A program made the translations under genes and the position numbers. From a virus (Duplodnaviria > Heunggongvirae > Uroviricota > Caudoviricetes), in the IMG/VR virus record IMGVR_UViG_2875703104_000006: a DNA stretch of 37,461 nt; one strand, given 5' to 3'. Below are positions 292 through 35,228 of the stretch, piece after piece. Position 1 is the first letter of the stretch, and every line of letters starts with the position of its first letter. The notes beneath the pieces are model-generated. The model was given only the letters and a program-made list of their open reading frames with translations. It was not told where the DNA came from and made no database searches.

Positions 292-2498
292 ACGACCTCT
301 TTTAATTGCCTGTCATTTAATTCTTTATGCCATATGCGGAAATTGCGAATATGGCCAAACAGATGTCGTTCTCCAGTATTCGTCTGCCCTCCAAATCGGA
401 TATTTTTATCAGCGGTCACNCCATTATATTCACAATAAACTTCATTAACCGCTTTACCATTTGTCACCACATGAAAGTGACCATCAGCTTTTGCAATACA
501 TCCAAATGTGGTTTTCTCTGCAAATACATCTGTCGCTGCGCTATTAACATACNAGCCTGAAGGGTTTGACAGACTCATATATAACTTACCACTACCTCTG
601 TTGATTGCTGCAATTGCTGATTGCCCGGTATTGGCTGCTGCTATATCCCACACGCGGGGTGCGGCGTTTGGTGCAATATCCCAGTTTTTATGAATCTCAA
701 GTAAAAAAGTAAATGGTAACTTATAAAGATTATTTCTGGTGGGGATACTAACCAAATCACTGGCTCTTGTCGTTGCGCTGCCTCCTGAAATAATAAATGA
801 TGATACACACGGCCCATTCTCTACTTGTGGGGTGGCAAGATAAATATAGTCACCAGATACTGTTGCCCCACCCNGCTCAGGAGAATACTGTATCTGAGAG
901 CCTATTTTTAACTCACCATCAATTGCCTGAATCGTTGCCTCTGCAAAAATCCAGCCNGTGGTCTTATCCTTCCTGACTCGTGCCGTAATTCTGCCGGCAG
1001 CNCCACCTGTCATATTAATTTCAAGCGTTTGCGTATCAATGTACGCATCGCCAAGAAAAGTTGTTGCACTACCATCATACTTATCAAACCGTATACGTAA
1101 CCTTACCTGTCGTTCTGTTTTAAAACGGCATGAGGTTGTCACGTACTTGTTATCGCCTGAGACATCAACTGACTTTGTTGCAGCAATTGATGCCATATTA
1201 ATAGCCGAAGTTTGCCCAACCAGAGAATCGTTGCAGACAAACTTTCCATAAGTAAAACCAAAACTATCNGTCCCGGTTTCGGGCACATCCATGTTTGATG
1301 ACTTCCCCCAGCTGGCTGGACTTTCCGAATTGAGCATGTAGTTCGTTCTTTGTCCCTCAATAAGCAGGCCATCACACTCAAATCGCGGCTCATTAATTTC
1401 CGCCGTTTTCAGTTCGCCAGATTTGTTGATATATGTTGCCGTTGATGCGCGACTGAAATTAACCTGTTTATCACTGGCGACCTGAACCACATCGTCACCA
1501 ATAGCTATTTTTTTATAGCCCGGAGAAAAACCCGCAATCATATCCAGTGAATCGTTAAACGGTATCCACACATCAGGCAGCGGCGGCACTATATTCGCAT
1601 AGGGCTCTGCAGTCACTTCCGCTGCGNCTTCTGCGCGGTCTGCCGCCTTTTCAGCNCGTGTCGCTGCCGACAGAGCCTCATCCTTTTTCTGCCCGGCCTT
1701 TGTTGCGTCTGCTGCNGCCTCCCGCGCTTTTGTGGTGGCGACTCCGGCATTTTCAGCGGCTGACTCTGCATTACGGCGGGAAGCCTCTTCACTGTCTGCG
1801 GAGGCTTCTTCTGACGCACGGGCATTTGTCTCTGAACGTTCTGCCGCTGTTGCTGCGTTTTGTGCGGCTGTTTTTGAAGAAGCTGCCGCTTTCGCGCTGT
1901 TACCTGCATTCGTCTCTGATGNNNNNNNNNNNNNNNNNNNNNTGTCTGCGGAGGCTTCTTCTGACGCACGGGCATTTGTCTCTGAACGTTCTGCCGCTGT
2001 TGCTGCGTTTTGTGCGGCTGTTTTTGAAGAAGCTGCCGCTTTCGCGCTGTTACCTGCATTCGTCTCTGATGTTTTCGCCGCGTTCCTGGACGATGCCGCT
2101 GCTGTTTCTGATTTCTTTGCTGCCGCTGCGCTCTGAGAGGCGGCTTCAGCGTTGCGTGCCACATCCTCCACCATTACCTCAAAACGACGCAATGCCTCCG
2201 GCATGACATCATCTTCCGTCATGGCACCGAGAAAATCATTCAGCGTACCTGGTCTGGAACCTTCATAGACGGTAATGGTCCCGGCATGTGAAGGCGGAAA
2301 ACCTTCAACCAGCAGGGTGACGCTGTACTGGCCATACTCAACATCCATGCTGTAACGCCCGGCTTCATCCGGATTTTCAGAGGCCACCGTGTTCACCAGT
2401 ACCGTGGTGCTGTTACGCTTTGCTTTGAGCTGAATAGTACAGTTCTGTATTGGTTTTCCTGCACCGTCTTTCAGCACGCCTGAAATCTGTACTGCCAT
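288..2498 (-). CDS. stf: Side tail fiber protein (Stf-like); contains a duplication/gap artifact
   Basis: N-terminus MAVQISGVLKDGAGKPIQNCTIQLKA... matches the lambda Stf N-terminus; long Ala/Ser/Thr-rich repeat region; ATG at 2496-2498 preferred over the track's GTG at 2504. Internal 129-bp exact duplicate flanking N-run 1922-1942. Confidence 0.85.
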   Translation of the reverse strand: MAVQISGVLKDGAGKPIQNCTIQLKAKRNSTTVLVNTVASENPDEAGRYSMDVEYGQYSVTLLVEGFPPSHAGTITVYEGSRPGTLNDFLGAMTEDDVMPEALRRFEVMVEDVARNAEAASQSAAAAKKSETAAASSRNAAKTSETNAGNSAKAAASSKTAAQNAATAAERSETNARASEEASADXXXXXXXXSETNAGNSAKAAASSKTAAQNAATAAERSETNARASEEASADSEEASRRNAESAAENAGVATTKAREXAADATKAGQKKDEALSAATXAEKAADRAEXAAEVTAEPYANIVPPLPDVWIPFNDSLDMIAGFSPGYKKIAIGDDVVQVASDKQVNFSRASTATYINKSGELKTAEINEPRFECDGLLIEGQRTNYMLNSESPASWGKSSNMDVPETGXDSFGFTYGKFVCNDSLVGQTSAINMASIAATKSVDVSGDNKYVTTSCRFKTERQVRLRIRFDKYDGSATTFLGDAYIDTQTLEINMTGXAAGRITARVRKDKTXGWIFAEATIQAIDGELKIGSQIQYSPEXGGATVSGDYIYLATPQVENGPCVSSFIISGGSATTRASDLVSIPTRNNLYKLPFTFLLEIHKNWDIAPNAAPRVWDIAAANTGQSAIAAINRGSGKLYMSLSNPSGXYVNSAATDVFAEKTTFGCIAKADGHFHVVTNGKAVNEVYCEYNXVTADKNIRFGGQTNTGERHLFGHIRNFRIWHKELNDRQLKEVV

Positions 2499-2519
2499 AT
2501 TCACTCCACAAATAAAAAA

Positions 2520-2537
2520 GGCGCCATTTCTGGCGCC
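2520..2537 (-). terminator. Hairpin GGCGCCA-tttc-TGGCGCC followed by a T-run on the minus strand, just downstream of J
   Basis: 7-bp perfect stem, 4-nt loop, A-run on plus strand (T-run on minus). Confidence 0.5.
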
Positions 2538-2556
2538 CGTATTTGGGTTATAAAAT

Positions 2557-5500
2557 TCAACTGATACTGATACCGGCTGTTGATTTCTTCATCACGACAA
2601 CAAGAAGGTCGCTGATACTGGTCGTTGGCGTCCAGTTATTTGCACCATATGAAGAAACATTGAAAGTCAGGGTGACATGGCCGTGTCCCGCTGGCATATC
2701 AATGACGGATGAAAATACCCTGCTGACATCCGTCGCGGGTTGCTGAAAGATTTCCTGTCCGTTCTTCAGTACCTGCAGCTTACAGGTTGAATACCAGTAT
2801 GACTGTTGGTTGTTGCTGTTGAAGTTTTCATGCTTACCACCGCGAAACAGAACGGGTGGGATTACTATCTGACGGTCAAAAGCCTGGTCATCGTACACAG
2901 TGACCGTTATTGTACCGCTGGCATAACTGCCATTTCTCGGAAAGGCTTTTCCCACCGTTTTGACAATATCACCTTCAATCTGGTTGGCAGACAGTTTTCC
3001 CAGAATCCGACAGTTCTGGTTAATCGTGACATTATTGAGCGTCCCTGAGTTCGCATTCACGTTACCGCTGATATCGGCATTTTTCGCCGTCAACCGCCCG
3101 TCCGGTGTCAGGGAAAATACCGGCGGATTGCCGCCGCTGGTAATGGTGGGAGCCGTCAGATACTTCAGGAACACTTCGTTCATGAATATCTGGTTGCCCT
3201 GCGCCACAAACATCGGCGTTTCATTCCCGTTTGCCGGGTCAATAAACGCGATACGGTTAGCGGCAACCAGGAACTGGCTCAGTTTGCCTTCCTCCGTATC
3301 CTCCATGCTGAGGCCAATACCCGCGACATAATGCCTGCCGTCTTCGGTCTGCTCAATTTTGACGCCCCACATGGCATTCCATTTATCGTTGGCGTCTTTC
3401 CACTCTTTCGAAAACTCCTCCAGTTTGCTGGCGTTATCCTCCGTCAGCTCGACTTTTTCCAGCAGCTCCTTGCCGAGATGGGATTCAGTTATCTGGCCTT
3501 TGAAAAAATCCAGATAGCCGGAAGCATCATCGCTCGCCTGACCGACAGCCTCCACGAATGCCGATTTGCCAACAGTATTCACACTGCGGATATAAAAATA
3601 ATAATCATGGCCCGGCTTAATATTGATACTGGCAGCTATCCAGTACAGCGCCGTGCCAAGATAGCGGGCTGTGGTTTCAACCTGCCTGATATCGGTAATC
3701 CGCTTTTCCGAGAACCAGAATTCAAACTGTACCGTCGGGTCATAAACGGCAAGATGCGGCGTGGCGGTTATCTGAAAATAGCCCGGCGTCAGATCAATCC
3801 TCGACGGTGCTGCCGGTGCGGCAATCCGGAACGATACCGACGCCGGATCGCCCTGCTGCCCCCACGCATTTACCGCCCGGACTGTCAGCGTGTACCGCCC
3901 CAGCGCCAGTTGCGTGAAGCGGTATGTGGTTTCCGTCGTCCGGGCCGTGCTGACCAGCCGCTCACTGCCGTCATCCGCTGCCACGGTCAGGCGAAGCATA
4001 AAGCTCACCCCCTTCACCACCTTCGGCGTGTCCCAGCGCGCCAGCACCTGATANNNNNNNNNNNNNNNNNNNNNTGTGGTTTCCGTCGTCCGGGCCGTGC
4101 TGACCAGCCGCTCACTGCCGTCATCCGCTGCCACGGTCAGGCGAAGCATAAAGCTCACCCCCTTCACCACCTTCGGCGTGTCCCAGCGCGCCAGCACCTG
4201 ATATTCCCCGCTGTCTGCGGTGACTTCGGCAGTCAGGTGCTGCACCGCTGGCGGCGTGACACCATTCACCGTGCCGCTCTGGTCGCCGTCAAAGTGCGCC
4301 CCGTTATCCACGATGGCCTCTTTTTCCGGTACATGCTGCACGGCAGTGATGGCATACGTGCCGTCATCGTTCTCACNNNNNNNNNNNNNNNNNNNNNCTG
4401 GCGGCGTGACACCATTCACCGTGCCGCTCTGGTCGCCGTCAAAGTGCGCCCCGTTATCCACGATGGCCTCTTTTTCCGGTACATGCTGCACGGCAGTGAT
4501 GGCATACGTGCCGTCATCGTTCTCACGGATACTCACGCAGCGGAACAGGCGCTGGCGCAACGTCGGCAACTTCAGCCCCCACACGCTGTATCCGGCAACG
4601 CCGTCAGGAACCCGGCTCACTTTTACCTTCACGCCGTCGGTGACGGACTGGACCTCCACGCTGACCGGATTGCCGCTTCCGTCAACCAGGCTTATCAGCG
4701 TGGTACCGGAGGATGGCAGAGTGATTTCACGGTCGAGCGTCAGCGTCCGGGTCTGGCTGTTCACCGCCAGCACGCGCCCGCCGATGCTGATACCCGCATA
4801 GTCATCATCGCAGATTTCAATAACATCGCCCGGCACATGGCGAAGCCCTTCTGCGCCCACGCTGAAATCCACGGTCTGCGTTTCCAGCAGTTCCGTTTTA
4901 ATCAGCCACAGCCCGGCTCGGTGTGCCTGCCCCCGACTGGTACAGCCAAAGGCATCCATCTTCGTGACGTTACGACCGTAACGGGCAATGGCCTGCGTGT
5001 CCTCCACAAGCTCTGTCGCCGTCTCCCAGCCGTTATCCGGGTCAATCCAGTTCACCTCAACGGCATTATGGCGGTCCTTCAGGGCGCTGAAACTGTAGCG
5101 GAACGGCGCGCCATCATCCGGCATCACCACATTACTGCGGTTATAGGTCCACACCTTATCCGACGGCCGGTCCTGCACGAACGTCAGCGTCTGCCCGTTC
5201 CATACCGGCATACAGCGCATCGCCGAGCAGAAATCACTGAGAACATCCCACGCCTTACGCTGTGTGGTCAGCCAGGCATTACAGGTGATGCGCGGCTCCG
5301 TGCCACCAAAACCATCCGGCACCGACTGGTCGCAATTCTGGCCGATGACATACAGCGCCCATTTGTCCACATCCGCCGCACCAAGACGTTTCCCCATGCC
5401 GTAGCGCGGATGGGTCAGCATATCCCACAGACACCAGGCCATGTTGTTGCTGTATGCCGGTTTTAACGTTCCGTCCCAGATACCGCTGTATTGTCGCGTC

Positions 5501-10945: not shown

Positions 10946-11128
10946 CTACGGAATGAGCGGATCTTCGGGTTTGCTTCCGGCTGACTGACTGGCGCTGATT
11001 CTCTCAGCGGCCCTTTTATCAATCTGCCTGCGCCAGAAATCGCGCACTGCCCTGTACCCACCCGAAAGAAGATACATAACACAGACTGCCATACAGAAGT
11101 ACAGCATTACCTGATGAATAAATGTCAT
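10946..11128 (-). CDS. Small membrane protein immediately upstream of the holin (60 aa)
   Basis: N-terminal hydrophobic segment [13 protein letters not shown]; stop 12 nt upstream of the holin start; weak SD. Confidence 0.4.
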
Positions 11129-11264
11129 AATTTCTTACCGTTATGGTTGACAATGAGAACTGTTTTCATTTAGAAATGATTGATGTCGAAAGCATCTTTT
11201 CTTTACATTCTCCATTGGGATTACCTCCGCCAGCTTCCATTCCTGCCGCTGGCGGCTTTTTTTA

Positions 11265-11532
11265 TCATGCCGCGATGTCCGCGTTGTTCACTTCCACCTT
11301 CACACTGTCAATCAGCAGCGTATATGTCGCCGCCTTTGATATGCCTGTCAGTTGCAGTTTGTCCGCCGCCCCTGATGCCGGAGACCGCCGCAATGGCCTG
11401 CATCAGGGTATAAGGCGTGATGGCCACCGGACTGCCAAATGGCTGCCACCCCTCCTTCAGTTTTTGTGTCAGTCGTTTCGCAAGGTCTGACGGCGATGCC
11501 GCCCTGACAACATCATAGTGTTTAAATGCCAT
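11265..11532 (-). pseudogene. Internally deleted remnant of the NanS-p-like esterase gene (first about 45 codons joined out of frame to the last about 40 codons)
   Basis: 11410-11532 matches the 5' end of the intact gene at about 16250-16375; 11265-11390 matches its 3' end at 14264-14390. Confidence 0.7.
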
Positions 11533-11792
11533 GGTTCTTTCCACCATCTGAAAAATAATTCTTTAAAATACCTGACATGTAATACAGAAAAAACACAAAA
11601 CCATACCTTAAATAAAAACCTCATCATCAAGCAGATATGCATGGATAAACTACAAGACGAGATATAAACCACCCTGCATTTAAATAAACAATAAACAACA
11701 TCAGAAAAATAATTCTGCTCTATGGTTTACATTCAAAAATATCATTTATACTTTTCAGAACATCACCAGCAAGACATAAACAAGGAAACTAA

Positions 11793-12128
11793 ATGAAGTG
11801 GATTGTGATTGATACAGTTATCCAGCCATCATGCGGAATATCTTTTTCAGTCATATGGAGTAAAATAAAATTAATAATCTGGTATCAATCGGATGCTTTC
11901 TTACCTCCTGAAAGTATATTTACACTGACTCACACAGGTATCATGCTCAATAACAAAGTGCTACCTGTAACCATTTACAACGTAGCACCATTCAATAAAA
12001 CATTCTGGAATTTAATCAAAAACAGCCAGGAATGTCCTACAAATACAGATAACGTATTGAATGAATGCTTTAATAACCGTTGCACTCTGCAAATATGTCC
12101 TTATGGACTAAAACAACAAAGTCCATAA
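11793..12128 (+). CDS. Hypothetical ORF in a strongly AT-rich island (111 aa)
   Basis: Only plus-strand ORF in this segment; atypical composition; no motif recognised. Confidence 0.25.
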
Positions 12129-12159
12129 GGAGTTTACTCACATCTGACAAAATCAATAT

Positions 12160-12420
12160 AAACAGCCCCTCCGGAGAGGGGCTGGAGAGTGGCGCTATGT
12201 GCCATTGCATGGTGCCGGGTGCCTCCCGGTGAATTCAGTACCAGCACCTGAATCCGCGATTATCCCATATACCTACTCGCTGATTGCCCCTCCGCACAGG
12301 GGGATTCACCATGCCAGTTTCTTTTAACAAACTCCCCGCAAACCAGACAACAGTCAACCGCCTGAATTGTGAAGTATTTAAAAATTTCTCCCGCTAACTG
12401 ATACCCGGCTAACAGTCTGG
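12160..12420. repeat. Copy 1 of a roughly 250-bp repeat family containing the perfect palindrome AGCCCCTC-cgga-GAGGGGCT
   Basis: Near-identical to 17082-17335 and related to 16595-16800. Confidence 0.6.
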
Positions 12421-12575
12421 CGTTTTCTTTTTCAGCAACGGGAAAGCAACAACCACCACACCCGCCACCAGCACACCGTCAGCCAGCACTGACATTATCC
12501 GGCTGCTGCAATGCCACTCACAAAAACAGTAAGCAATCACTTTTTACCGTAACAAGTGATAATCCAGATATGTAT

Positions 12576-12929
12576 CTACCCCAGATGAGTAATCCGAAGT
12601 TCATCCATACCACAGGTACTGGCTATTCTGTTGTACTCCTGAACAAGAGCAAATAATTCTGAATTAGCAACCATGAACTCATCGCAAACCCTCTGTATAG
12701 CATCACTATTCAGAATAATAACGTCTCTTCCCGAAAGACGATCAGGAGTACAGAACAAAACTGTCAAACGGCTGAAGGCCTTTGCTCGTCCTGCATTGAC
12801 TATATCAATACGCTGCCTAAGGATGAAACACCCCGACGCCTCATCAATATTCACTCTACCCACACCATATGAATGATAAATATTTAATGCTGAAAAAACC
12901 ATTAGACCGTATAACAAACACTCAATCAA
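12576..12929 (-). CDS. Hypothetical 117-aa ORF at the position equivalent to TerB (and to stx in Stx phages) in the decayed module copy
   Basis: ORF with hydrophobic N-terminus MIECLLYGLMVFSALNIY; lower GC than surroundings; no obvious SD; coding status uncertain. Confidence 0.3.
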   Translation of the reverse strand: MIECLLYGLMVFSALNIYHSYGVGRVNIDEASGCFILRQRIDIVNAGRAKAFSRLTVLFCTPDRLSGRDVIILNSDAIQRVCDEFMVANSELFALVQEYNRIASTCGMDELRITHLG

Positions 12930-13042
12930 TACTTAACAGAACTTTTATTTTTGACAAACATAAAATATTTTCAACAATATCCTGAGCCAGGTATATTTCA
13001 GTATAAGGCTCTGCCGGAAGGAATCTGGAAGAATGAATATAG

Positions 13043-13116
13043 CGCGCTGTACTGGATTCGAACCAGTGACCGATTGCTTAGAAGGCAATTGCTCTGTCCG
13101 GCTGAGCTAACAACGC
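13043..13116 (-). tRNA. argO: tRNA-Arg (anticodon UCU)
   Basis: Cloverleaf readable by eye: 7-bp acceptor stem GCGTTGT/ACAGCGC, anticodon loop CTTCTAA, T-loop GGTTCGAATCC; end coordinates approximate. Confidence 0.8.
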
Positions 13117-13129
13117 TGAATACCGATAA

Positions 13130-13210
13130 TGGACCGCCATCGGGGACCCGCCCCCGCACCAACAACCCTGTTATCGTGTCGTCTGCTCTTCCTGATAAGC
13201 TAATGGCGGT
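13130..13210 (-). pseudogene. Degenerate tRNA-like sequence at the position of tRNA-Arg(UCG) in the other cluster
   Basis: Acceptor ends (accgccat...atggcggtcca) conserved with 18195-18271 but D-arm and T-loop disrupted. Confidence 0.35.
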
Positions 13211-13216
13211 TTGTGA

Positions 13217-13292
13217 TGGTGGCCCTTGCTGGATTTGAACCAGCGACCTGGCGATTATGAGTCGCTCGCTCTCACCACTGAGCTAAAGGGCC
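13217..13292 (-). tRNA. ileZ: tRNA with anticodon CAU (Met, or Ile2 if lysidine-modified; ileZ-like)
   Basis: GGCCCTTTAGCTCAGTGGTGAGAGC...anticodon loop CTCATAA...GGTTCAAATCC...GGGCCACCA with encoded CCA. Confidence 0.8.
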
Positions 13293-13337
13293 GGGAGCAG
13301 AATAATAACGGTCCGTAATTAATTCCGCAATAAAAAA

Positions 13338-13435
13338 CCCGCTCGGCGGCGGGTTGTAGAAACTCTTCTAACGCCAGGCATAAAAAGCCCATTGTTATGA
13401 CGAATTTACCACAGATTCCGGAAAAATCAACCTTG
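13338..13435 (-). promoter_or_regulatory. Late promoter PR'-like (-35 TTGATT, -10 TAAATT), Q-utilisation region and tR'-like terminator downstream of Q copy A
   Basis: Minus-strand sequence TTGATTtttccggaatctgtggTAAATTcgtcataacaatgggc resembles lambda PR' and its early transcribed region; followed by hairpin CCCGC-n6-GCGGG plus T-run at 13338-13353. Confidence 0.55.
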
Positions 13436-14267
13436 TTACCTAGTTACCTTTTTTAACTGCCGCTCAGCCCATGCTTCTTCAATATCAAACCGGGTCACCA
13501 GCGCATCATAGAATTTCTTAACTGTTTTTTCCCATGACGCGCGTGTTATCTGGTTTGTCACCTCGCATATAGCATTAAATGCCTCCGTTGATGGTAGTCT
13601 TTCATAGCCACGACCACCACAACGCTGGCAGTCTCTGATAACAGGCATACCACGTTTTACCGACTCTTCACGATGAATGGCGACACCACGCCCACGGCAA
13701 TCCTTACAGGCGGTGGAAACCTCACCCTTTCCGCCACACTCCGGACAGGCAACTTTTACCACCTCCCTGACTTTTTTCCATACCACGTTTTACCGACTCT
13801 TCACGATGAATGGCGACACCACGCCCACGGCAATCCTTACAGGCGGTGGAAACCTCACCCTTTCCGCCACACTCCGGACAGGCAACTTTTACCACCTCCC
13901 TGACTTTTTTCCATTCTTCCCAGTAAGACGAATACACACCTTTCGTACACTTTGCCCATACCGGCGGCTTACCATCCGGATACTGGACCTTGTTTGTAAA
14001 AACTACGCTTTCAATAAATTTTTCCCCATAGCAACAAGGGCACTGCTTTTTACTCGCTGCGCTGCGGGCATAATCCTCAAAAGCGTACGAAGCCATAATG
14101 CGCATCACTACCGGTTTTATTTCTGCCGGAAGTTTTCTCAACGCCGCCACACGATCGCACCGACTGAGTGCATAATCTGCCAGTAATTCTGTTGCCCGCG
14201 CCCTGTCATTCATACTGATGCCCATTTTCCCCAGTCCATTCCTGCCGCTGGCGGCTTTTTTTATCAT
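13436..14267 (-). pseudogene. Q: Antiterminator Q, copy A: native N-terminus replaced and frame broken by a 133-bp exact tandem duplication
   Basis: Q-like sequence with zinc-binding CPECGGKG...CKDCRGRG; duplicated 133-bp units at about 13648-13780 and 13781-13913; 5' end abuts the nanS-p 3' end. Confidence 0.75.
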
Positions 14268-16375
14268 GCCGCGATGTCCGCGTTGTTCACTTCCACCTTC
14301 ACACTGTCAATCAGCAGCGTATATGTCGCCGCCTTTGATATGCCTGTCAGTTGCAGTTTGTCCGCCGCCCCTGATGCCGGAGATTTCACCAGTGTGAACG
14401 GCGTCCCCCGTTTCTCATCCAGTACCGGCGTCACCTGAATGCTGTTGTTTCCGGCAAACTCAAAAGCCAGTGTGTGCCATCCGTTATCAAAGACCCCGAA
14501 CGTNTCCAGCTTCGCATTCGGCTTCTTGTGGTGCATCGCGTTCAGGTTCGTCGCATCCGTCTGCAGNAAGAAGGACATCAGCATGTCGTTGCCTTCCTCT
14601 GCCAGCGTCACTCCCTCCGGCAGGGACGACAACTGCCAGTAAATGCCCAGGGCAAACTGATTCGGCACCAGTGAACCCGGCAACTTAAACCGTACGCTCA
14701 CACGTCCCCCCTTCTTCAGTAACTCCACTCCCTGTCCGGCTGCATCATGCTCCAGAAACCAGATGTGGTTTTCCGGTTTATTCAGTTGCAGGGCCTTACC
14801 TCCCGTAGCCCCCGCATCACTGACCACCGCTTCAGCAATGTTTTTGTTAACATTGTCTCCGCTCGCCGGTTTGTGATAATAGCGCCAGCCCTGTGATGCC
14901 AGGTCTTCGCCGGACGCCAGCAGACTCATCAGGGTTCGGTTACTGACCGGGGCTTCCGGCTCTCTCTCCGTACCTTCACCGGAAGGTCCGGTGGGCTTCA
15001 CCGTATCAGGCTGTTTTCCGGTAATGAATTCAGCGTTTCTCCCGGCATGCACAAGAATCGCCGTTGCCAGACGGTCGGAAATAATCCCACGACGTGCCCA
15101 TGATCCAAAATGCGTTTTACGGTCNGCCGTCGTCCAGGTTTTGGCGTCCGTTCGACCACCGGCTCCGTAATACCCAATATCCGCAACATCCGGATCTTCT
15201 GACGGCTCGTTGGTACCCACATTTCGCCCGTTTTCATCCGTCATAAACGGCACAAAGAAGATTTTTTTTGCGGATTTCGTCTTGTATGCACCATACACCG
15301 CATCGTATTGCGAAGAATAAGTCTGCTTCCAGTAGTAGGTCGTGTCGCCACAAATCCAGGGAACCGATGACGGAGAGCCCCCGAGACACTGACCTCCGAA
15401 TTCCGACAGGTCAGAACGATATTTTTCCACCATGGAATCAAACAGCCCCGGCTGNGTGGCGTATGCACCCTGTTTCAAATCAAACTCGCCCTGCATCCAG
15501 ACCACTGCAAGCAGAATATTTTTAGGGTTGGCCTTCAGTGCGGCCTGAGTACGGGTAAGCAGGTCCTTGTACAGTGGCTTATCTACACCCCAGCGTGCCG
15601 AGGTCTCGCTTGCGCCGGTGGATTCGCTGAAGGTACCTTCATCGCCCGCCAAAAATGCAGAACCACCACGGCAGCACGGAACCAGAAGAATACCGGCATT
15701 CGCCGGAATAAACGGCAACAATTTCTTCGCGATATGTAATCCCTGCCCCACGCATCCATACTGAGCTGCNCTGGCTTTCGGGTGTGAAAACTTACTCAAA
15801 TCCTGAACATCATGCAGGCAGTGGTCCGCAGGAATAATGTCATTGTAGTTACAGNACGCACCACCCGGCGTGACAGTGCTGCGACGCGCCAGCTGTTTAA
15901 TACGCGGGTCCGGACGGTCATATGTCTCCGGCAGCGGAAGCCCTTCACCATACGCCATACCGTTTGACTGCCCGGCCAGGGCAACAACAAAGTAATACTC
16001 CGGGTTGCTGGTGGTGCTGATAACTGCGCCTTCTCCATCCGACGGCTTCACCACCACAGGTGTGGTGACATCACCTTCCGCCGCAATGGCCTGCATCAGG
16101 GTATAAGGCGTGATGGCCACCGGACTGCCAAATGGCTGCCACCCCTCCTTCAGTTTTTGTGTCAGTCGTTTCGCAAGGTCTGACGGCGATGCCGCCCTGA
16201 CAACATCATAGTGTTTNNNNNNNNNNNNNNNNNNNNNGGCCTGCATCAGGGTATAAGGCGTGATGGCCACCGGACTGCCAAATGGCTGCCACCCCTCCTT
16301 CAGTTTTTGTGTCAGTCGTTTCGCAAGGTCTGACGGCGATGCCGCCCTGACAACATCATAGTGTTTAAATGCCAT
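14264..16375 (-). CDS. nanS: NanS-p-like sialate O-acetylesterase (DUF1737 N-terminal domain plus SASA-type esterase domain); contains a duplication/gap artifact
   Basis: N-terminus MAFKHYDVVRAASPSDLAKRLTQKLKEGWQPFGSPVAITPY and GQSNGMAYGEG motif; 129-bp duplicate around N-run 16217-16237 plus single Ns. Confidence 0.75.
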   Translation of the reverse strand: MAFKHYDVVRAASPSDLAKRLTQKLKEGWQPFGSPVAITPYTLMQAXXXXXXXKHYDVVRAASPSDLAKRLTQKLKEGWQPFGSPVAITPYTLMQAIAAEGDVTTPVVVKPSDGEGAVISTTSNPEYYFVVALAGQSNGMAYGEGLPLPETYDRPDPRIKQLARRSTVTPGGAXCNYNDIIPADHCLHDVQDLSKFSHPKAXAAQYGCVGQGLHIAKKLLPFIPANAGILLVPCCRGGSAFLAGDEGTFSESTGASETSARWGVDKPLYKDLLTRTQAALKANPKNILLAVVWMQGEFDLKQGAYAXQPGLFDSMVEKYRSDLSEFGGQCLGGSPSSVPWICGDTTYYWKQTYSSQYDAVYGAYKTKSAKKIFFVPFMTDENGRNVGTNEPSEDPDVADIGYYGAGGRTDAKTWTTXDRKTHFGSWARRGIISDRLATAILVHAGRNAEFITGKQPDTVKPTGPSGEGTEREPEAPVSNRTLMSLLASGEDLASQGWRYYHKPASGDNVNKNIAEAVVSDAGATGGKALQLNKPENHIWFLEHDAAGQGVELLKKGGRVSVRFKLPGSLVPNQFALGIYWQLSSLPEGVTLAEEGNDMLMSFXLQTDATNLNAMHHKKPNAKLXTFGVFDNGWHTLAFEFAGNNSIQVTPVLDEKRGTPFTLVKSPASGAADKLQLTGISKAATYTLLIDSVKVEVNNADIAA

Positions 16376-16594
16376 GAATCCTCCCGGCCGGGATAATATT
16401 GTGAGTAAAATAAGGAGCGGGCTGAAGTCCGGAAGTTACAGGACAATGGCAGAAGAGAGACGACAGCCCGCAATTCGAAAAAGACCGCGCAGTTGCGCAG
16501 CCTTATGAATTCTGGTTAAAATCCATTCGATTATAAAAATGTATATCTCATGCTGTTGCCCGAACCCACTCGGGCTTTTTTTGCCCACAAGAAA

Positions 16595-16800
16595 GCCCCT
16601 CCGGAGAGGGGCTAAAGCCGCGTATCTGTATCATCATGCACATGGTGCCGGGTGCCTCCCGGTGAGTTCAGCCCGGTGCCACTAAACCCGCGTCATTCTC
16701 GTTTTGATAATCAGAGATTATACCGTCACCAGTCGCCCCTCCGCTCAGGGGGATTCACCATGCGAAATTTTTTTAACAAATGCCCAGTCTGACAGGCAAC
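16595..16800. repeat. Diverged copy of the hairpin-containing repeat family
   Basis: Shares AAAGCCCCTCCGGAGAGGGGCT, ggtgccgggtgcctcccggtgagttcag and cccctccgc(a/t)cagggggattcaccatg segments with 12160-12420 and 17082-17335. Confidence 0.55.
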
Positions 16801-17081
16801 TGTCAACTTACTGAATTGTGAGCAACATAGCATTTAACGGGGAACCTGTTTTCTGCAGTAAAAAGGCCCACCGGAGCGGATGGGCCTGGAAGGATAGCGG
16901 TCATGTGATGCCGGTTTCCCGGTAACTCAGCACCGGTATCTGAGTCAACGTTTTCTCTACTGGGTCATTTCCGATACGCCCTGCCTGCTGACAGGCTTTC
17001 ATCACATCTGAAAATATAGCACCCTGACTGATACTGTAGTACCTAAGGTTCCAGAAACTGTGATGTATCCGGCACAGAAAA

Positions 17082-17335
17082 GCCCCTCCGGAGAGGGGCT
17101 GGAGAGTGGCACTATGTGCCATTGCATGGTGCCGGGTGCCTCCCGGTGAGTTCAGTATCAGCACCTGAACCCGCACAGAAAGGATAAGGGTCGGTGACAA
17201 AACACCAGTTGCTGATTGCCCCTCCGCACAGGGGGATTCACCATGCCAGTTTCTTTTAACAAACTCCCCGCAAACCAGACAACAGTCAACCGCCTGAATT
17301 GTGAGGTATTTAAAAATTTCAACGGGTAACTGATA
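17082..17335. repeat. Copy of the hairpin-containing repeat family, immediately downstream of the small membrane gene
   Basis: Near-identical to 12160-12420. Confidence 0.6.
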
Positions 17336-17340
17336 CCCTG

Positions 17341-17493
17341 CTAATCGCCTGATGCTTTCTTTTTCAGCAACGGGAAAGCAACAACCACCACACCCGCCAC
17401 CAGCACACCGTCAGCCAGCACTGACATTATCCGGCTGCTGAAGTCCACCATCACCACCAGAAACAGCAGGAGCGCAACCACAGCCAGACGCAT
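17341..17493 (-). CDS. Small hydrophobic protein (50 aa)
   Basis: MRLAVVALLLFLVVMVDFSSRIMSVLADGVLVAGVVVVAFPLLKKKASGD; two predicted TM segments; a 5'-truncated copy lies at about 12425-12510. Confidence 0.45.
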   Translation of the reverse strand: MRLAVVALLLFLVVMVDFSSRIMSVLADGVLVAGVVVVAFPLLKKKASGD

Positions 17494-17501
17494 TTTTACC
17501 G

Positions 17502-17933
17502 TCACAGATGATTCTCCAGACGAAGGCCCAGAACACCGGCAATCTCTTCCAGCACCTTGCGCTCTTCCGGCTCTATTTCGCCGTCTGCTTCGGCAATGGC
17601 CACCGCCACATCCAGCACGTCTTCCGCTTCACGCGTATCGTGTTTCACATCCTCGATCTCACGTAACGCCGCACGACGACCAATTTTAAAGTTCGTATCC
17701 AGCTGACCGATAATGGTTGCGCTAATCGCATTAATTTCTGACGTAAACGCGGACAAGGTGGGCTGGTTACGTAATACCTGTTCGATCTTCGCTTTCTCGG
17801 AAGCCTCACATTCACCATCGGCATAAGCCACCAGGTATGCAGCGTTAATCACTGCCTGTGCCAGATCGCGTTTTTCAAACTTTTTAATTTCCGCAGACGC
17901 TCTGCGGGTTTTCTTTTTGAAGATTCCAAGCAT
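17502..17933 (-). CDS. TerB-like domain protein
   Basis: Start MLGIFKKK with SD AAGGAA; acidic helical protein LAQAVINAAYLVAYADGECEASEKAKIEQVL...AVAIAEADGEIEPEERKVLEEIA resembling TerB-family proteins by recall. Confidence 0.5.
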   Translation of the reverse strand: MLGIFKKKTRRASAEIKKFEKRDLAQAVINAAYLVAYADGECEASEKAKIEQVLRNQPTLSAFTSEINAISATIIGQLDTNFKIGRRAALREIEDVKHDTREAEDVLDVAVAIAEADGEIEPEERKVLEEIAGVLGLRLENHL

Positions 17934-18106
17934 TGTGACGTTCCTTTGGGTGGGTGAGCCAACGCCCGGGAGCGATCTGCCCACAGAGAAAGTCACACTG
18001 ACCACTCCGTAAGCTCACCCCCGAAAGGCTCTGTGGTTGATATGCGCCGGGCGTGGCGCGGATACAAAAAAGGCCCGCAAAAGCGAGCCGGGAAAAATAA
18101 GTCTGG

Positions 18107-18180
18107 CGCGTTGTACTGGATTCGAACCAGTGACCGATTGCTTAGAAGGCAATTGCTCTGTCCGGCTGAGCTAACAACGC
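18107..18180 (-). tRNA. argO: tRNA-Arg (anticodon UCU), second copy
   Basis: Near-identical to 13043-13116. Confidence 0.8.
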
Positions 18181-18194
18181 AGAATGCCGATAAA

Positions 18195-18271
18195 TGGACC
18201 GCCATCGAGGACTCGAACCCCGCGCAACCAGCTTCGAAGGCTGGCGCTCTATCCCGATGAGCTAATGGCGG
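18195..18271 (-). tRNA. argN: tRNA-Arg (anticodon read as UCG; argN-like)
   Basis: CCGCCAT TA GCTC ATCGGGATA GAGC G CCAGC CTTCGAA GCTGG ... CGGGG TTCGAGT CCTCG ATGGCGG T CCA; all four arms pair. Confidence 0.75.
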
Positions 18272-18280
18272 TATGTGATA

Positions 18281-18356
18281 TGGTGGCCCTTGCTGGATTT
18301 GAACCAGCGACCTGGCGATTATGAGTCGCTCGCTCTCACCACTGAGCTAAAGGGCC
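18281..18356 (-). tRNA. ileZ: tRNA with anticodon CAU (Met/Ile2; ileZ-like), second copy
   Basis: Identical to 13217-13292. Confidence 0.8.
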
Positions 18357-18396: not shown

Positions 18397-19455
18397 TCAT
18401 CCGTTCTGACTGGCTAAATCCTGAACTTCCCTGACCGTCTGTTCAAAACGTTCAGTCTCCAGCTCAACGCCTGTAGCACGACGCCCCAGCGCCATCGCGG
18501 CTTTGACTGTCGAACCCGACCCCATGAAGAAATCTGCAACCAGGTCACCCGGACGACTGCTCGCACTGATTATCTGCTGCAGCATTTCTGCCGGTTTTTC
18601 GCACGGATGTTTCCCGGGATAGTACTGCACCGGTTTATGCGTCCACACATCCGTGTACGGCACCTGCGCCGTCACGCCAAAATACCGCCGCAGATGCTTA
18701 TATTCACTCTGCAGTTCCGCATACTGCCGGTTCAGTGAAGTATACGTCTCCAGCAGCTGGTGGTGGGGCTTTTCCAGTTCACCCCGCTGATGCTTCTCTT
18801 CTGCCACCCGGGCAAACAGCGCCTGTAATTTCAGATAATCACTTTCGTTCGGCAGCTGCCACTGACTGGCACTGAACCAGTGCGACACCATGTTTTTCTT
18901 TCCTGTGGCATCCACTATCTGTTTTGCCGTTATCCCCAGGGCAGCGCGCGCATCACGAAAGTAAGCAATCAGCGGGGCCATCACATGCTGTTTCAGTGCC
19001 CTGCCCTTCGCCTCATACCCGGCATCTTTCGGACGATACGGCCCCTGATAATGTTCCGCGAACAGAATGCGCTCTGTGGCGGGGAAATACGCCCGCAGGC
19101 TTTCCTTGTTGCACCCGTTCCAGCGTCCGGACGGCTTTGCCCAGATAATATGGTTCAGCACACTGAAGCGTTCACGCATCATGATTTCGATATCAGATGC
19201 CAGGCGATGACCACAGAACAGGTAAAGACTTCCGGCAGGTTTCAGCACCCGCCAGAACTGCGCCAGACACTGGTCCAGCCACTTCAGGTAATCATCGTCG
19301 CCCTTCCACTGGTTATCCCAGCCCTCAGGCTTCACTTTAAAGTACGGCGGGTCCGTGACTATCAGGTCAACAGAATTTTCGGGTAACGACCGGATAAATT
19401 CCAGGCAGTCGGCGTTGATTAACTCACAACTGGATATTTTTACAGTATTAAGCAT
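18397..19455 (-). CDS. DNA methyltransferase (N6-adenine or N4-cytosine, beta class)
   Basis: Motif IV DPPY near the N-terminus (LIVTDPPYF) and AdoMet motif I near the C-terminus (DFFMGSGST). Confidence 0.8.
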   Translation of the reverse strand: MLNTVKISSCELINADCLEFIRSLPENSVDLIVTDPPYFKVKPEGWDNQWKGDDDYLKWLDQCLAQFWRVLKPAGSLYLFCGHRLASDIEIMMRERFSVLNHIIWAKPSGRWNGCNKESLRAYFPATERILFAEHYQGPYRPKDAGYEAKGRALKQHVMAPLIAYFRDARAALGITAKQIVDATGKKNMVSHWFSASQWQLPNESDYLKLQALFARVAEEKHQRGELEKPHHQLLETYTSLNRQYAELQSEYKHLRRYFGVTAQVPYTDVWTHKPVQYYPGKHPCEKPAEMLQQIISASSRPGDLVADFFMGSGSTVKAAMALGRRATGVELETERFEQTVREVQDLASQNG

Positions 19456-19924: not shown

Positions 19925-20029
19925 TAAAAAACCCGCCAGGCGGCGGGGTGTAAAAAATCTTCTAACGTCAGGCATAAAACGCCCATCGTTAGAGCAAATT
20001 TACCACAGATTCGGGAAAAATCAACAACA
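19925..20029 (-). promoter_or_regulatory. Late promoter PR'-like (-35 TTGATT at 20019-20024, -10 TAAATT at 19997-20002) with Q-utilisation region and tR'-like terminator hairpin, downstream of Q copy B
   Basis: Minus-strand TTGATTtttcccgaatctgtggTAAATTtgctctaacgatgggc; hairpin CCCGCC-n4-GGCGGG plus T-run at about 19931-19948. Confidence 0.6.
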
Positions 20030-20984
20030 CTATCGCGTTACCCTCTTTAACTGCCGCTCCGCCCATGCCTCTTCAATGTCAAACCGAACCACCAACGTAT
20101 CGTAAAAGCGTTTCACTGATTTTTTCCACGTATCAAGCGTGATAGCACTCGTCACTTTGCATATGGCATTAAATGCCTCCGTTGATGGCAGCCTTTCACA
20201 GCCACGACCACCACAACGCTGGCAATCTCTGATAACAGGCATACCACGTTTTACCGACTCTTCACGATGAATGGCGACACCACGCCCACGGCAATCCTTA
20301 CAGGCGGTGGAAACCTCACCCTTTCCGCCACACTCCGGACAGGCAACTTTTACCACCTCCCTGACTTTTTTCCATACCACGTTTTACCGACTCTTCACGA
20401 TGAATGGCGACACCACGCCCACGGCAATCCTTACAGGCGGTGGAAACCTCACCCTTTCCGCCACACTCCGGACAGGCAACTTTTACCACCTCCCTGACTT
20501 TTTTCCATTCTTCCCAGTAAGACGGATACACGCCTTTTGTGCACTTTGCCCACACTGGTGGCTTACCATCCGGATACTGGATCTTGTTTGTAAAAACCTC
20601 GCTTTCAATAAATTTTTTTCCGTGACAGCAGGGGCACTGTTTTTTGCTCGCCGCGCTACGGGCATAATCTTCAAACGCATACGAAGCCATAATGCGCATC
20701 ACTACCGGTTTTATTTCTGCCGGAAGTTTTCTCAACGCCGCCACACGATCGCACCGACTGAGTGCATAATCTGCCAGTAATTCTGTTGCCCGCGCCCTGT
20801 CATTCATACTGATGCCCATTTTCCCCAGGAACGCAGAAAACCCCATCTCAGCCCGATTCTGTGTCATGCCCTGCGCGGCCATCACATCAGTGATACTCAG
20901 CGCATCTTTTGACGTTGAGGCCGATGCATCGGTCAGGCCAGGGGATTTTGGGGAGTAGTATTTCGGTAAATCTTCCAGTTTCAT
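20030..20984 (-). CDS. Q: Antitermination protein Q (lambda Q family), copy B; frame interrupted by a 133-bp exact tandem duplication
   Basis: N-terminus MKLEDLPKYYSPKSPGLTDASA...DVMAAQGM resembles the lambda Q N-terminus; zinc-binding Cys cluster; duplication splits the gene into ORFs 20316-20984 and 20030-20380. Confidence 0.8.
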
Positions 20985-24978: not shown

Positions 24979-25134
24979 TTACTCCTCAGGTTCGTAAGCT
25001 GTGAAGACAGCGACCTCCGTCTGGCCGGTTCGGATTCGTACCTCGCAGAGGTCTTTCCTCGTTACCAGTGCCGTCACAATGACGGTTAAACAGATGACGA
25101 TCAGGGCGATTAGCATCGCCTTTTGCTGCTTCAT
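24979..25134 (-). CDS. hok: Hok/Gef-family type I toxin (51 aa)
   Basis: MKQQKAMLIALIVICLTVIVTALVTRKDLCEVRIRTGQTEVAVFTAYEPEE: single TM plus conserved Hok C-terminal region; in-frame upstream extension consistent with a mok-like leader. Confidence 0.8.
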   Translation of the reverse strand: MKQQKAMLIALIVICLTVIVTALVTRKDLCEVRIRTGQTEVAVFTAYEPEE

Positions 25135-25425
25135 AGCCTGCTTCTCCTTGCCTTTCGGCACGTAAGAGGCTAACCTACGTGTGTAGAGCATAGATATGGC
25201 CTCAGATTAATGTTAAGCGTCTTGCAGGACGCGTAATGTTAACTGGGGCTTTTCTCTATCTGCCTTTTGGTGTTCATGCCTGAGACAGATAGCCTCAAGC
25301 ACCCGCTGCAATTCTACTTAACTCTCCTTTTCCCGCAAACCGTTTTTATCCCCAGCGGCAAATCGAATACACCACCAGCGCCACCGCCATCGCAATTCCT
25401 ACCGTTGTTAATGCTTCAGGCCAGG

Positions 25426-34955: not shown

Positions 34956-35228
34956 CATACGCTTAAGTGACAACCCCGCTGCAACGCCCTCTGTTATCAA
35001 TTTTCTGGTGACGTTTGGCGGTATCAGTTTTACTCCGTGACTGCTCTGCCGCCCTTTTTAAAGTGAATTTTGTGATGTGGTGAATGCGGCTGAGCGCACG
35101 CGGAACAGTTAAAACCAAAAACAGTGTTATGGGTGGATTCTCTGTATCCGGCGTTAATTGTTAACTGGTTAACGTCACCTGGAGGCACCAGGCACCGCAT
35201 CACAAAATTCATTGTTGAGGACGCGATA

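Follow-up and report, generated by a model that had tools for sequence, protein, structure and literature searches.

A tciA-tciB cassette of the phage P1 type in the Shiga toxin gene slot of a lambdoid prophage

The tci locus of bacteriophage P1, which reportedly goes back to Lobocka et al. 2004, is the named counterpart of a gene pair in the viral DNA analysed here, the IMG/VR record IMGVR_UViG_2875703104_000006 (Caudoviricetes; 37,461 nt, the whole of which is referred to as the window). The pair, tciA-tciB, lies on the minus strand and is, with near certainty as to identity and organisation, an accessory ('moron') cassette of a lambdoid prophage that is homologous to P1 TciA/TciB. The function of the P1 genes is known only 'by homology', and tciA, tciB and tciC were found to be non-essential by CRISPR interference (PMC10695390). 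TciA consists of a TerB domain. TerB proteins are described as amphitropic and membrane-associated, and TerB is described to form a complex with TerC (bioRxiv 10.1101/2025.09.30.679545; PMC8123226); TerB domains have also been proposed as amphitropic membrane sensors (PMC10250203; bioRxiv 10.1101/2025.09.30.679545). DjlA combines a transmembrane (TM) helix with a TerB-like domain and a J domain (bioRxiv 10.1101/2024.08.29.610257). For the resistance conferred by the ter operon, terC, terD and terE are needed along with terB (PMC8123226).

P1 (GenBank AF234172) shows the same arrangement as the window, namely, a single-domain TerB gene of 141–143 amino acids (aa) followed by a DUF3927 gene of 54 aa, with overlapping stop and start codons. 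TciA is 41% identical between the two (tblastn, E = 2e-23) and TciB 44%, and tRNA genes lie near both loci. The third P1 gene, tciC (36 aa, one TM segment), has no counterpart in the window, where no open reading frame (ORF) of the TM type follows tciB and an STnc100 element comes next. The corresponding DNA of Escherichia phage JLK-2012 (94.6% identity) bears the annotation tciA/tciB. This phage is also devoid of tciC, which is therefore not universal to the module. Furthermore, P1 tciA-tciB-tciC is framed by the C1 operator/Pban promoters on the upstream side and ban on the downstream side, whereas the pair of the window belongs to a presumably Q-dependent late operon. A preliminary description of the window, made from the sequence alone, had overlooked the match to this long-annotated module. 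The cassette is already known, since databases contain the gene pair together with its name, families and location in Shiga toxin (Stx)-like prophages and the TerB gene has been listed as a conserved neighbour of the PasA/PasC small RNAs (sRNAs) in Stx-like prophages (2026 preprint, 10.64898/2026.05.13.724894).

ORF analysis of the window confirmed both genes where they had been placed before. tciA (17502..17933, minus strand) encodes a single-domain TerB protein of 143 aa and starts with ATG, with the Shine-Dalgarno sequence AAGGAA 8 nt upstream. tciB (17341..17505, minus strand) encodes a DUF3927 protein of 54 aa with two hydrophobic segments. Its GTG start overlaps the TGA stop of tciA (GTGA) and is preceded by GGAG. 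The preliminary description had rightly recognised a small gene for a protein with two TM segments; its length of 50 aa, however, resulted from reading the same frame from an internal ATG. A TciA extended at its N-terminus to the GTG at 18005 (a 167-aa ORF; database entries have 189–192 aa) was rejected, as the frame is broken by 1-nt indels in the leader of related loci. All TciA homologues begin with M-[FL]-G behind a good Shine-Dalgarno sequence, which contradicts this extension as well.

A TerB-like gene had been claimed from the letters of the DNA, and the profile search proposed as a check bore this out. Residues 26–138 of TciA aligned to positions 2–109 of the 118 positions of PF05099 with 60.2 bits (gathering cutoff 24.4, E = 2.9e-16). 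In PHROGs, TciA matched phrog_632 ('tellurite resistance') over its full length with E = 8.8e-69, and residues 13–137 could be aligned with the solved operon TerB (PDB 2JXU) with E = 4e-8 and approx. 25% identity. Weak matches below the family cutoffs were obtained for DjlA (NCBIfam, E = 1e-6) and DUF533 (E = 1.8e-5). The AlphaFold2 model is all-helical with seven helices and a pLDDT (predicted local distance difference test) of 80–90. Its top Foldseek match was 2h5n, presumably a TerB-like fold in SCOP, with a probability of 1.0 but a weak E-value of 0.05. TciA contains two acidic 'ADG...E' motifs (D39/E46 and D117/E124), which are invariant in the alignment of lambdoid, P1, jumbo, N4-like and Pseudomonas phage homologues. 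This duplicated A-D-G...E motif of TerB may bind a metal or ligand, as has been proposed. The N-terminal 25 residues are polybasic (net +6), the remainder of the protein is acidic (net -12).

TciB was assigned to Pfam DUF3927 (PF13064) with 71.7 bits (cutoff 25, E = 4.8e-20) and matched phrog_1470, 'TciB-like inhibition of cell division or resistance to colicin', over its full length (E = 1.6e-24). The protein can be aligned with TciB of P1, Pollock and Asesino. According to its hydropathy, the hydrophobic segments comprise approx. residues 7–20 and 29–45 with DFSSR between them, and both termini are basic; a membrane hairpin with both ends in the cytoplasm (N-in/C-in) is therefore predicted. 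DUF3927 is a small family, which accounts for only 53 clusters (50% identity) in a set of 1.84 billion representatives, practically all of them between 30 and 90 aa. Several proteins were inspected as natural TerB-DUF3927 fusions and rejected: P0124 and P0184, candidates for Rosetta-stone fusions, are frameshift read-throughs of the overlapping tciA/tciB, and P0258 is actually a chimera of a phosphatase and DUF3927.

The conservation of the two ORFs as a unit, another check that had been proposed, was followed in 108 loci, which came from annotated phages, 23 species genomes and 80 IMG/VR contigs. In 101 of them, the genes are translationally coupled, with the start of DUF3927 placed 4 or 1 nt inside the stop codon of the TerB gene; most of the other loci are on truncated contigs or have ambiguous starts. 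Among distinct alleles of the same length, the median ratio of nonsynonymous to synonymous substitution rates (dN/dS) was 0.064 for tciA and 0.24 for tciB, which indicates purifying selection on both genes. At least 25 complete E. coli genomes, ABU 83972 among them, contain a 721-bp stretch with 100% identity, where both genes are called by PGAP (Prokaryotic Genome Annotation Pipeline) and named 'tellurite resistance TerB family protein' and 'DUF3927 family protein'. Given this identity and the purifying selection, the pair is real far beyond chance. Matches were found in 2364 of 5426 complete E. coli genomes, 790 of which carry the full stretch, in up to eight places per genome.

A full-length TerB homologue was detected by tblastn in 130 phage records. 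The pair is present in Erwinia jumbo phages with 68–70% identity (Asesino with 68%, adjoining tRNAs) and in the virulent N4-like podophage Pollock, where it adjoins dUTPase and replication genes and where its presence was found 'curious' by the authors (PMC4319500). All species-genome contexts examined were prophages. In locus L100, the order is Q-tciAB-holin-holin-endolysin, and in L104 a Q-like gene lies directly upstream of the pair; both pairs belong to the P1-type subfamily (41% identity). In other prophage loci, the pair adjoins CI-like repressors or a DnaB-like helicase. The flanks of close lambdoid relatives are mosaic, with methylase, tRNAs, STnc100 and nanS-p each present or absent. 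tRNAs flank tciAB in P1, JLK-2012, Asesino and the window. A tight functional link between tRNAs and tciAB was nevertheless rejected, since tRNAs flank only 9 of 24 diverse loci, which looks like common placement in accessory regions. In JLK-2012 (L001; compared with P1, L003, and with L101), tciAB comes after tRNA-Asn, -Thr and -Gly. This is very similar to P1, where tRNA-Asn and -Thr lie upstream of tciA, and hints at a possible, occasional joint transfer of tRNAs and tciAB between lambdoid and P1-like phages. Two further observations concern TerB genes with other surroundings. In Pseudomonas phage AF (L006), an unannotated ORF of 73 aa with one TM segment (1932–2153) begins with a GTG overlapping the stop codon of the phage TerB gene. 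Candidatus Pantoea communis (L094) carries four TerB-like ORFs within approx. 3 kb (1843–5085), none of them with a DUF3927 partner, which may be a different array of TerB paralogues.

Within the prophage, the pair had been described as sitting in the slot of stxA/stxB in a lambdoid late operon, directly downstream of an ileZ-argN-argO-like tRNA cluster. Both statements agree with the comparison made here. The cluster (18104..18356, minus strand) was identified by ARAGORN, Rfam and RefSeq, in accordance with Stx-phage annotation, as Ile2 (CAT), Arg (TCG) and Arg (TCT); the tRNA with the CAT anticodon is labelled tRNA-Ile in RefSeq, i.e. the ileZ type. It is preceded by the gene of a DNA N6/N4 methyltransferase of the late operon (18397..19455, minus strand; Pfam N6_N4_Mtase, E = 5.8e-44, and annotation). 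In phage Stx2a_1447, the methylase-ileZ-argN-argO block (97% identity) is followed by stx2A-stx2B, a gap and nanS-p. Homology of the window to Stx2a_1447 ends at 18055, just past the terminator-like hairpin behind argO, and resumes at 16821 within an STnc100-type element, which in Stx2a_1447 lies 46 nt after stx2B. Because the homology breaks and resumes at these two points, tciAB occupies the stx slot precisely. No stxA/stxB was found between the tRNAs and nanS-p in the window; the cargo there is tciAB, between flanks which are 97% and 88% identical to Stx2a_1447. The interval between Q and the lysis genes is a general hotspot for morons and also houses stx, iraM and sRNAs.

Downstream of the pair, two STnc100/PasD-like sRNA elements were detected on the minus strand. 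The proximal one (17070..17275; Rfam RF02076, 139.7 bits) begins 66 nt downstream of tciB by its Rfam match, which starts at 17275, and 36 nt downstream by its repeat unit, which starts at 17305. The distal one (16583..16792; 165.5 bits; 88% identical to the Stx2a phage) is the copy common to Stx2 phages, where it lies downstream of stx2B. The next late gene encodes a carbohydrate esterase of the nanS-p type (14264..16375, minus strand; Pfam SASA and DUF6645, and annotation). The annotated order in genomes of the ABU 83972 type is Q antiterminator, small ORF, DNA methyltransferase, tRNA-Ile, tRNA-Arg, tRNA-Arg, TerB and DUF3927, followed by approx. 1 kb without a coding sequence, the SASA esterase (nanS-p), DUF1378, DUF826, holin, YdfR, lysozyme and lysis protein. 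A third copy of STnc100 is located at 12154–12343 (minus strand), and an AsxR-like element at 16528–16580 (plus strand) scored exactly at the gathering threshold. Each cargo cassette is trailed by an STnc100 copy, and the STnc100/AsxR-like elements may be boundaries at which cassettes are exchanged by recombination.

A lambda-type late promoter region lies just downstream of Q (19985..20024, minus strand) with TTGATT, a 16-nt spacer and TAAATT, then an AACGAT element. The block GGTAAATTTG..AACGATGGG, in which AACGATGGG follows TTGATT-16 nt-TAAATT, can be aligned with the region immediately downstream of lambda Q, and is taken to be pR'/qut. The terminator scan revealed a strong tR'-like intrinsic terminator downstream of pR' (19932..19947, minus strand). 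A second hairpin with a T-run, resembling an intrinsic terminator and common to Stx2 phages, directly follows the tRNA-Arg gene argO (18072..18089, minus strand). A crude consensus scan of the stretch from argO to tciA gave no sigma-70-like promoter on the gene strand. With two terminators ahead of it and no promoter that could be recognised as its own, tciAB is probably not expressed in the lysogen, and Q-dependent expression upon induction only, as for stx2, is the most economical reading.

The approx. 140 nt between the argO terminator and tciA (17934..18071, minus strand) form a conserved leader that travels with tciAB. Of 87 related loci, 85 have it ahead of tciA irrespective of their flanks, and other genera are included at approx. 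70% identity. The leader is non-coding, as 1-nt indels occur among the related loci. Its predicted minimum free energy is -55.7 kcal/mol and several helices are possible, of which CCACAGAG/CTCTGTGG, GGTGAGC/GCTCACC and GGAGTGGTC/GATCGCTCC are mutually exclusive or pseudoknotted. In the helix GGAGTGGTC/GATCGCTCC, three pairs are changed on both sides, a value that did not clearly exceed that of shuffles (43–55 of 500); the covariation is weak. The other helices showed no variation among the related loci. No family in Rfam matched the leader, which could act as a cis-regulatory or RNA-processing element.

Taken together, the reading of the pair as a P1-type tciAB cassette that acts at the membrane in lytic growth has, as a whole, a slightly better than even chance of being the right explanation. 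Its functional part, that TciAB is a membrane-tethered helper of the lytic cycle, is put forward tentatively and would on its own not yet be called probable. After induction, RNA polymerase modified by Q would start from the lambda-type pR' and read through tR' and the terminator behind argO, so that TciA and TciB would be made together in a fixed ratio. TciB would enter the inner membrane as an N-in/C-in hairpin and tether TciA, with its acidic TerB domain and polybasic N-terminal tail, at the cytoplasmic face of the membrane. This would be a version in two pieces of the layout of DjlA and YebE, in which a membrane anchor is combined with a TerB domain. The membrane-bound TerB module might then serve as a non-essential helper in lytic growth. 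It may stabilise or monitor the inner membrane and its ion status and so keep the infected cell productive until programmed lysis; by analogy with the ter operon, it may also exclude insults targeting the membrane such as pore-forming colicins or superinfecting phage. The pair is kept by virulent phages, which argues for a benefit during lytic infection. A membrane-associated accessory function, as already suggested by the preliminary description, fits the data, and these favour a non-essential, membrane-associated role in lytic growth over a defence system of the lysogen.

Several points weigh against this proposal. In the literature searched, no experiment on TciA or TciB was found. The interaction of the two proteins is deduced from gene coupling alone, and no genuine TerB-DUF3927 fusion was present among the fused proteins examined. 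In the AlphaFold2 model of the natural frameshift fusion P0124, the TerB part was folded well, but the TM part was a single helix of low confidence (pLDDT 47–75) that was not docked on the TerB domain and formed no interface. The partner ORF in Pseudomonas phage AF shows the same overlapping arrangement and is not a DUF3927 gene; thus, DUF3927 itself is not strictly required. The predicted timing of expression also varies, as the pair of P1 lies downstream of the C1-controlled Pban promoters and upstream of the ban helicase gene, that of Pollock adjoins dUTPase and replication genes and that of the window belongs to the late operon, so that its role cannot be tied to one stage of infection. 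Finally, the conserved leader may contain a weak constitutive promoter that a consensus scan would miss.

It is unlikely that the pair protects the lysogen as an anti-phage defence or superinfection exclusion system, in which inner-membrane TciB/TciA would block the entry of phage DNA or trigger abortive infection. There is precedent for it, as the validated systems Shango, Bunzi and Dionysus contain TerB domains (PMC10250203; bioRxiv 10.1101/2025.09.30.679545) and phage inhibition as well as resistance to colicins have been linked to the plasmid ter operon (PMC4319500, PMC8123226). The CI-like repressors next to some homologues mark a typical site of exclusion genes expressed in the lysogen. 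Still, PADLOC 2.0.0 gave no significant match: the best one for TciA was PDC-S48 with E = 0.0025 and 14.9 bits over 35 residues, TciB matched none of the models, and Dionysus, which postdates this version, was outside the profile comparison. The pair is not accompanied by a helicase, ATPase, effector or pore-forming partner, its neighbours being tRNAs, sRNA elements, the nanS-p esterase and the methylase. Located behind tR' and a second terminator without a detectable promoter, it is probably off in the lysogen. In N4-like and jumbo virulent phages, a defence gene makes little sense unless it acts by exclusion; carriage of tciAB there would be compatible with exclusion, since virulent phages carry exclusion genes too. 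For these reasons, namely, no PADLOC match, no effector partner, carriage by virulent phages and probable silence in the lysogen, the defence function considered in the preliminary description was not supported. Phages are known to mimic immune domains of their hosts, and the pair might instead be a decoy against defence, in which a free-standing phage TerB protein with a membrane anchor competes with or poisons the TerB-based surveillance of the host (ter operon, Shango, Bunzi, Dionysus). The virulent carriers, which include jumbo phages with 68–70% identity, speak for it, as does the fact that the TerB-containing Dionysus specifically targets jumbo phages; the dispensability of the pair in the laboratory host (PMC10695390) would also be in line with a decoy. 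However, this case is purely circumstantial. TciA is only approx. 25% identical to operon TerB and matched no PADLOC model of a defence TerB, and the pair is abundant in E. coli lineages without a reported link to TerB-based defence systems. A decoy thus appears rather improbable. The bolder proposal that tciAB is not a stress gene but a conserved phage counter-measure or exclusion device, in which a free-standing, membrane-tethered TerB protein common to temperate, phage-plasmid, N4-like and jumbo phages jams TerB-based immunity or blocks superinfection at the inner membrane and the highly structured leader is a dedicated cis-regulatory RNA, is doubtful to a similar degree as lysogen defence.

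The position of the pair led to another possibility, that TciB with its two TM segments, together with TciA, tunes holin triggering or the energisation of the membrane just before lysis. Two TciA subfamilies with only 41% identity to each other (window and L100) both have the pair placed between Q and the lysis genes, and TciB has a size and topology like those of small holin- or antiholin-like proteins. Against this, the pair is found away from lysis genes in P1, Pollock, Asesino and the repressor- and DnaB-linked loci, no holin family was matched in Pfam or PHROGs, and the interval between Q and lysis is a hotspot for morons in general. A modulator of lysis timing is therefore considered about as improbable as the decoy. 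A literal gene for tellurite resistance or for a stress function in lysogenic conversion, as the database labels 'tellurite resistance' and the homology of TciA to operon TerB would have it, is the least credible of the alternatives and very improbable. terC, terD and terE are absent from the ORFs around the pair and from the 44 features annotated in the identical prophage region, and from its location, the pair should be expressed only upon induction.

The window is a scaffolded draft with runs of 21 N and exact tandem duplications of approx. 130 nt at contig joins. The N-runs (at 1922, 4054, 4377, 6928 and 16217) mark abutted contig ends. The duplications are located at 16088–16216/16238–16366, at 13646–13778/13779–13911 and, with approx. 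133–136 nt, within 20240–20508 inside Q; they create apparent frameshifts in both Q genes. The nanS-p ORF is inflated by the first of them (129 nt), around the N-run. The join of two prophages within nanS-p was dismissed as biology, being a scaffolding artefact: the region 11000–14300 comes from a different prophage, which is approx. 193 kb away in the complete genome MCJCHV-1. tciAB lies within one clean contig (16238–20375) that matches complete genomes with 99.95–100%. The region 11000–14300 is a second lambdoid late region with Q, tRNA-Ile, tRNA-Arg, approx. 500 nt containing an unannotated ORF of 117 aa (12576–12929), a truncated DUF3927 gene of 43 aa (12409–12540), STnc100 and, on the opposite strand, a homologue of the IraM anti-adaptor (11793–12128). 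In this region, tciA was lost and a remnant of tciB was kept. The early region of the prophage contains the antitoxin RNA sok of the hok/sok type (25129–25304, minus strand, 117 bits) and the sRNA DicF (35003–35054, plus strand, 76.7 bits).

The pair is of interest as a tightly coupled and strongly selected module that is common to lambdoid prophages, P1, N4-like and jumbo phages. TerB domains recur in several anti-phage systems, and tciAB could help to clarify their role at the membrane. It also bears on the question why the stx slot so often holds such cargo in non-toxigenic relatives of Stx phages.

Among known systems, non-Stx lambdoid phages and prophages such as JLK-2012, phage Evi and the PPyecE prophages carry the same cassette with 95–98% protein identity and the same leader. 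Their common order is Q-tRNAs-tciA-tciB-(STnc100)-yjhS/nanS-p-S-R-Rz, and they differ from the window in the flanks alone, i.e. in the Q type, the tRNA set or the presence of methylase or STnc100. The stx2AB cassette shares the identical slot and flanks (methylase-ileZ-argN-argO-terminator on one side, STnc100-like element and nanS-p on the other) and the predicted Q-dependent late expression, but its cargo is unrelated, as tciAB contains no toxin and has no similarity to stx. TerB of the terZABCDE(F) operon has the same domain and length as TciA, with approx. 125 residues aligned and both ADG...E motifs kept. In contrast to the operon protein, to which its identity is low, TciA is phage-borne and has a 54-aa hairpin as putative membrane partner instead of the multi-pass TerC; TerC, TerD, TerE, TerZ and TerA partners are absent. 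With SngA of Shango, BnzA of Bunzi and DinB of Dionysus, TciA has a TerB-like domain in common, which is proposed to act at or survey the membrane. The pair differs from these systems as it comes without helicase and ATPase or a MAEBL/TM protein and pore-forming toxin, and as it is borne by phages and not located in defence islands. DjlA and YebE (DUF533) hold a TerB-like domain at the cytoplasmic face of the inner membrane by an anchor in the same chain, whereas the anchor of TciA would be a separate polypeptide and a J domain is lacking. The pair is thus a member of the P1-type tciAB module with its TerB and DUF3927 families, and not a ter operon, a recognised defence system or an Stx cassette.

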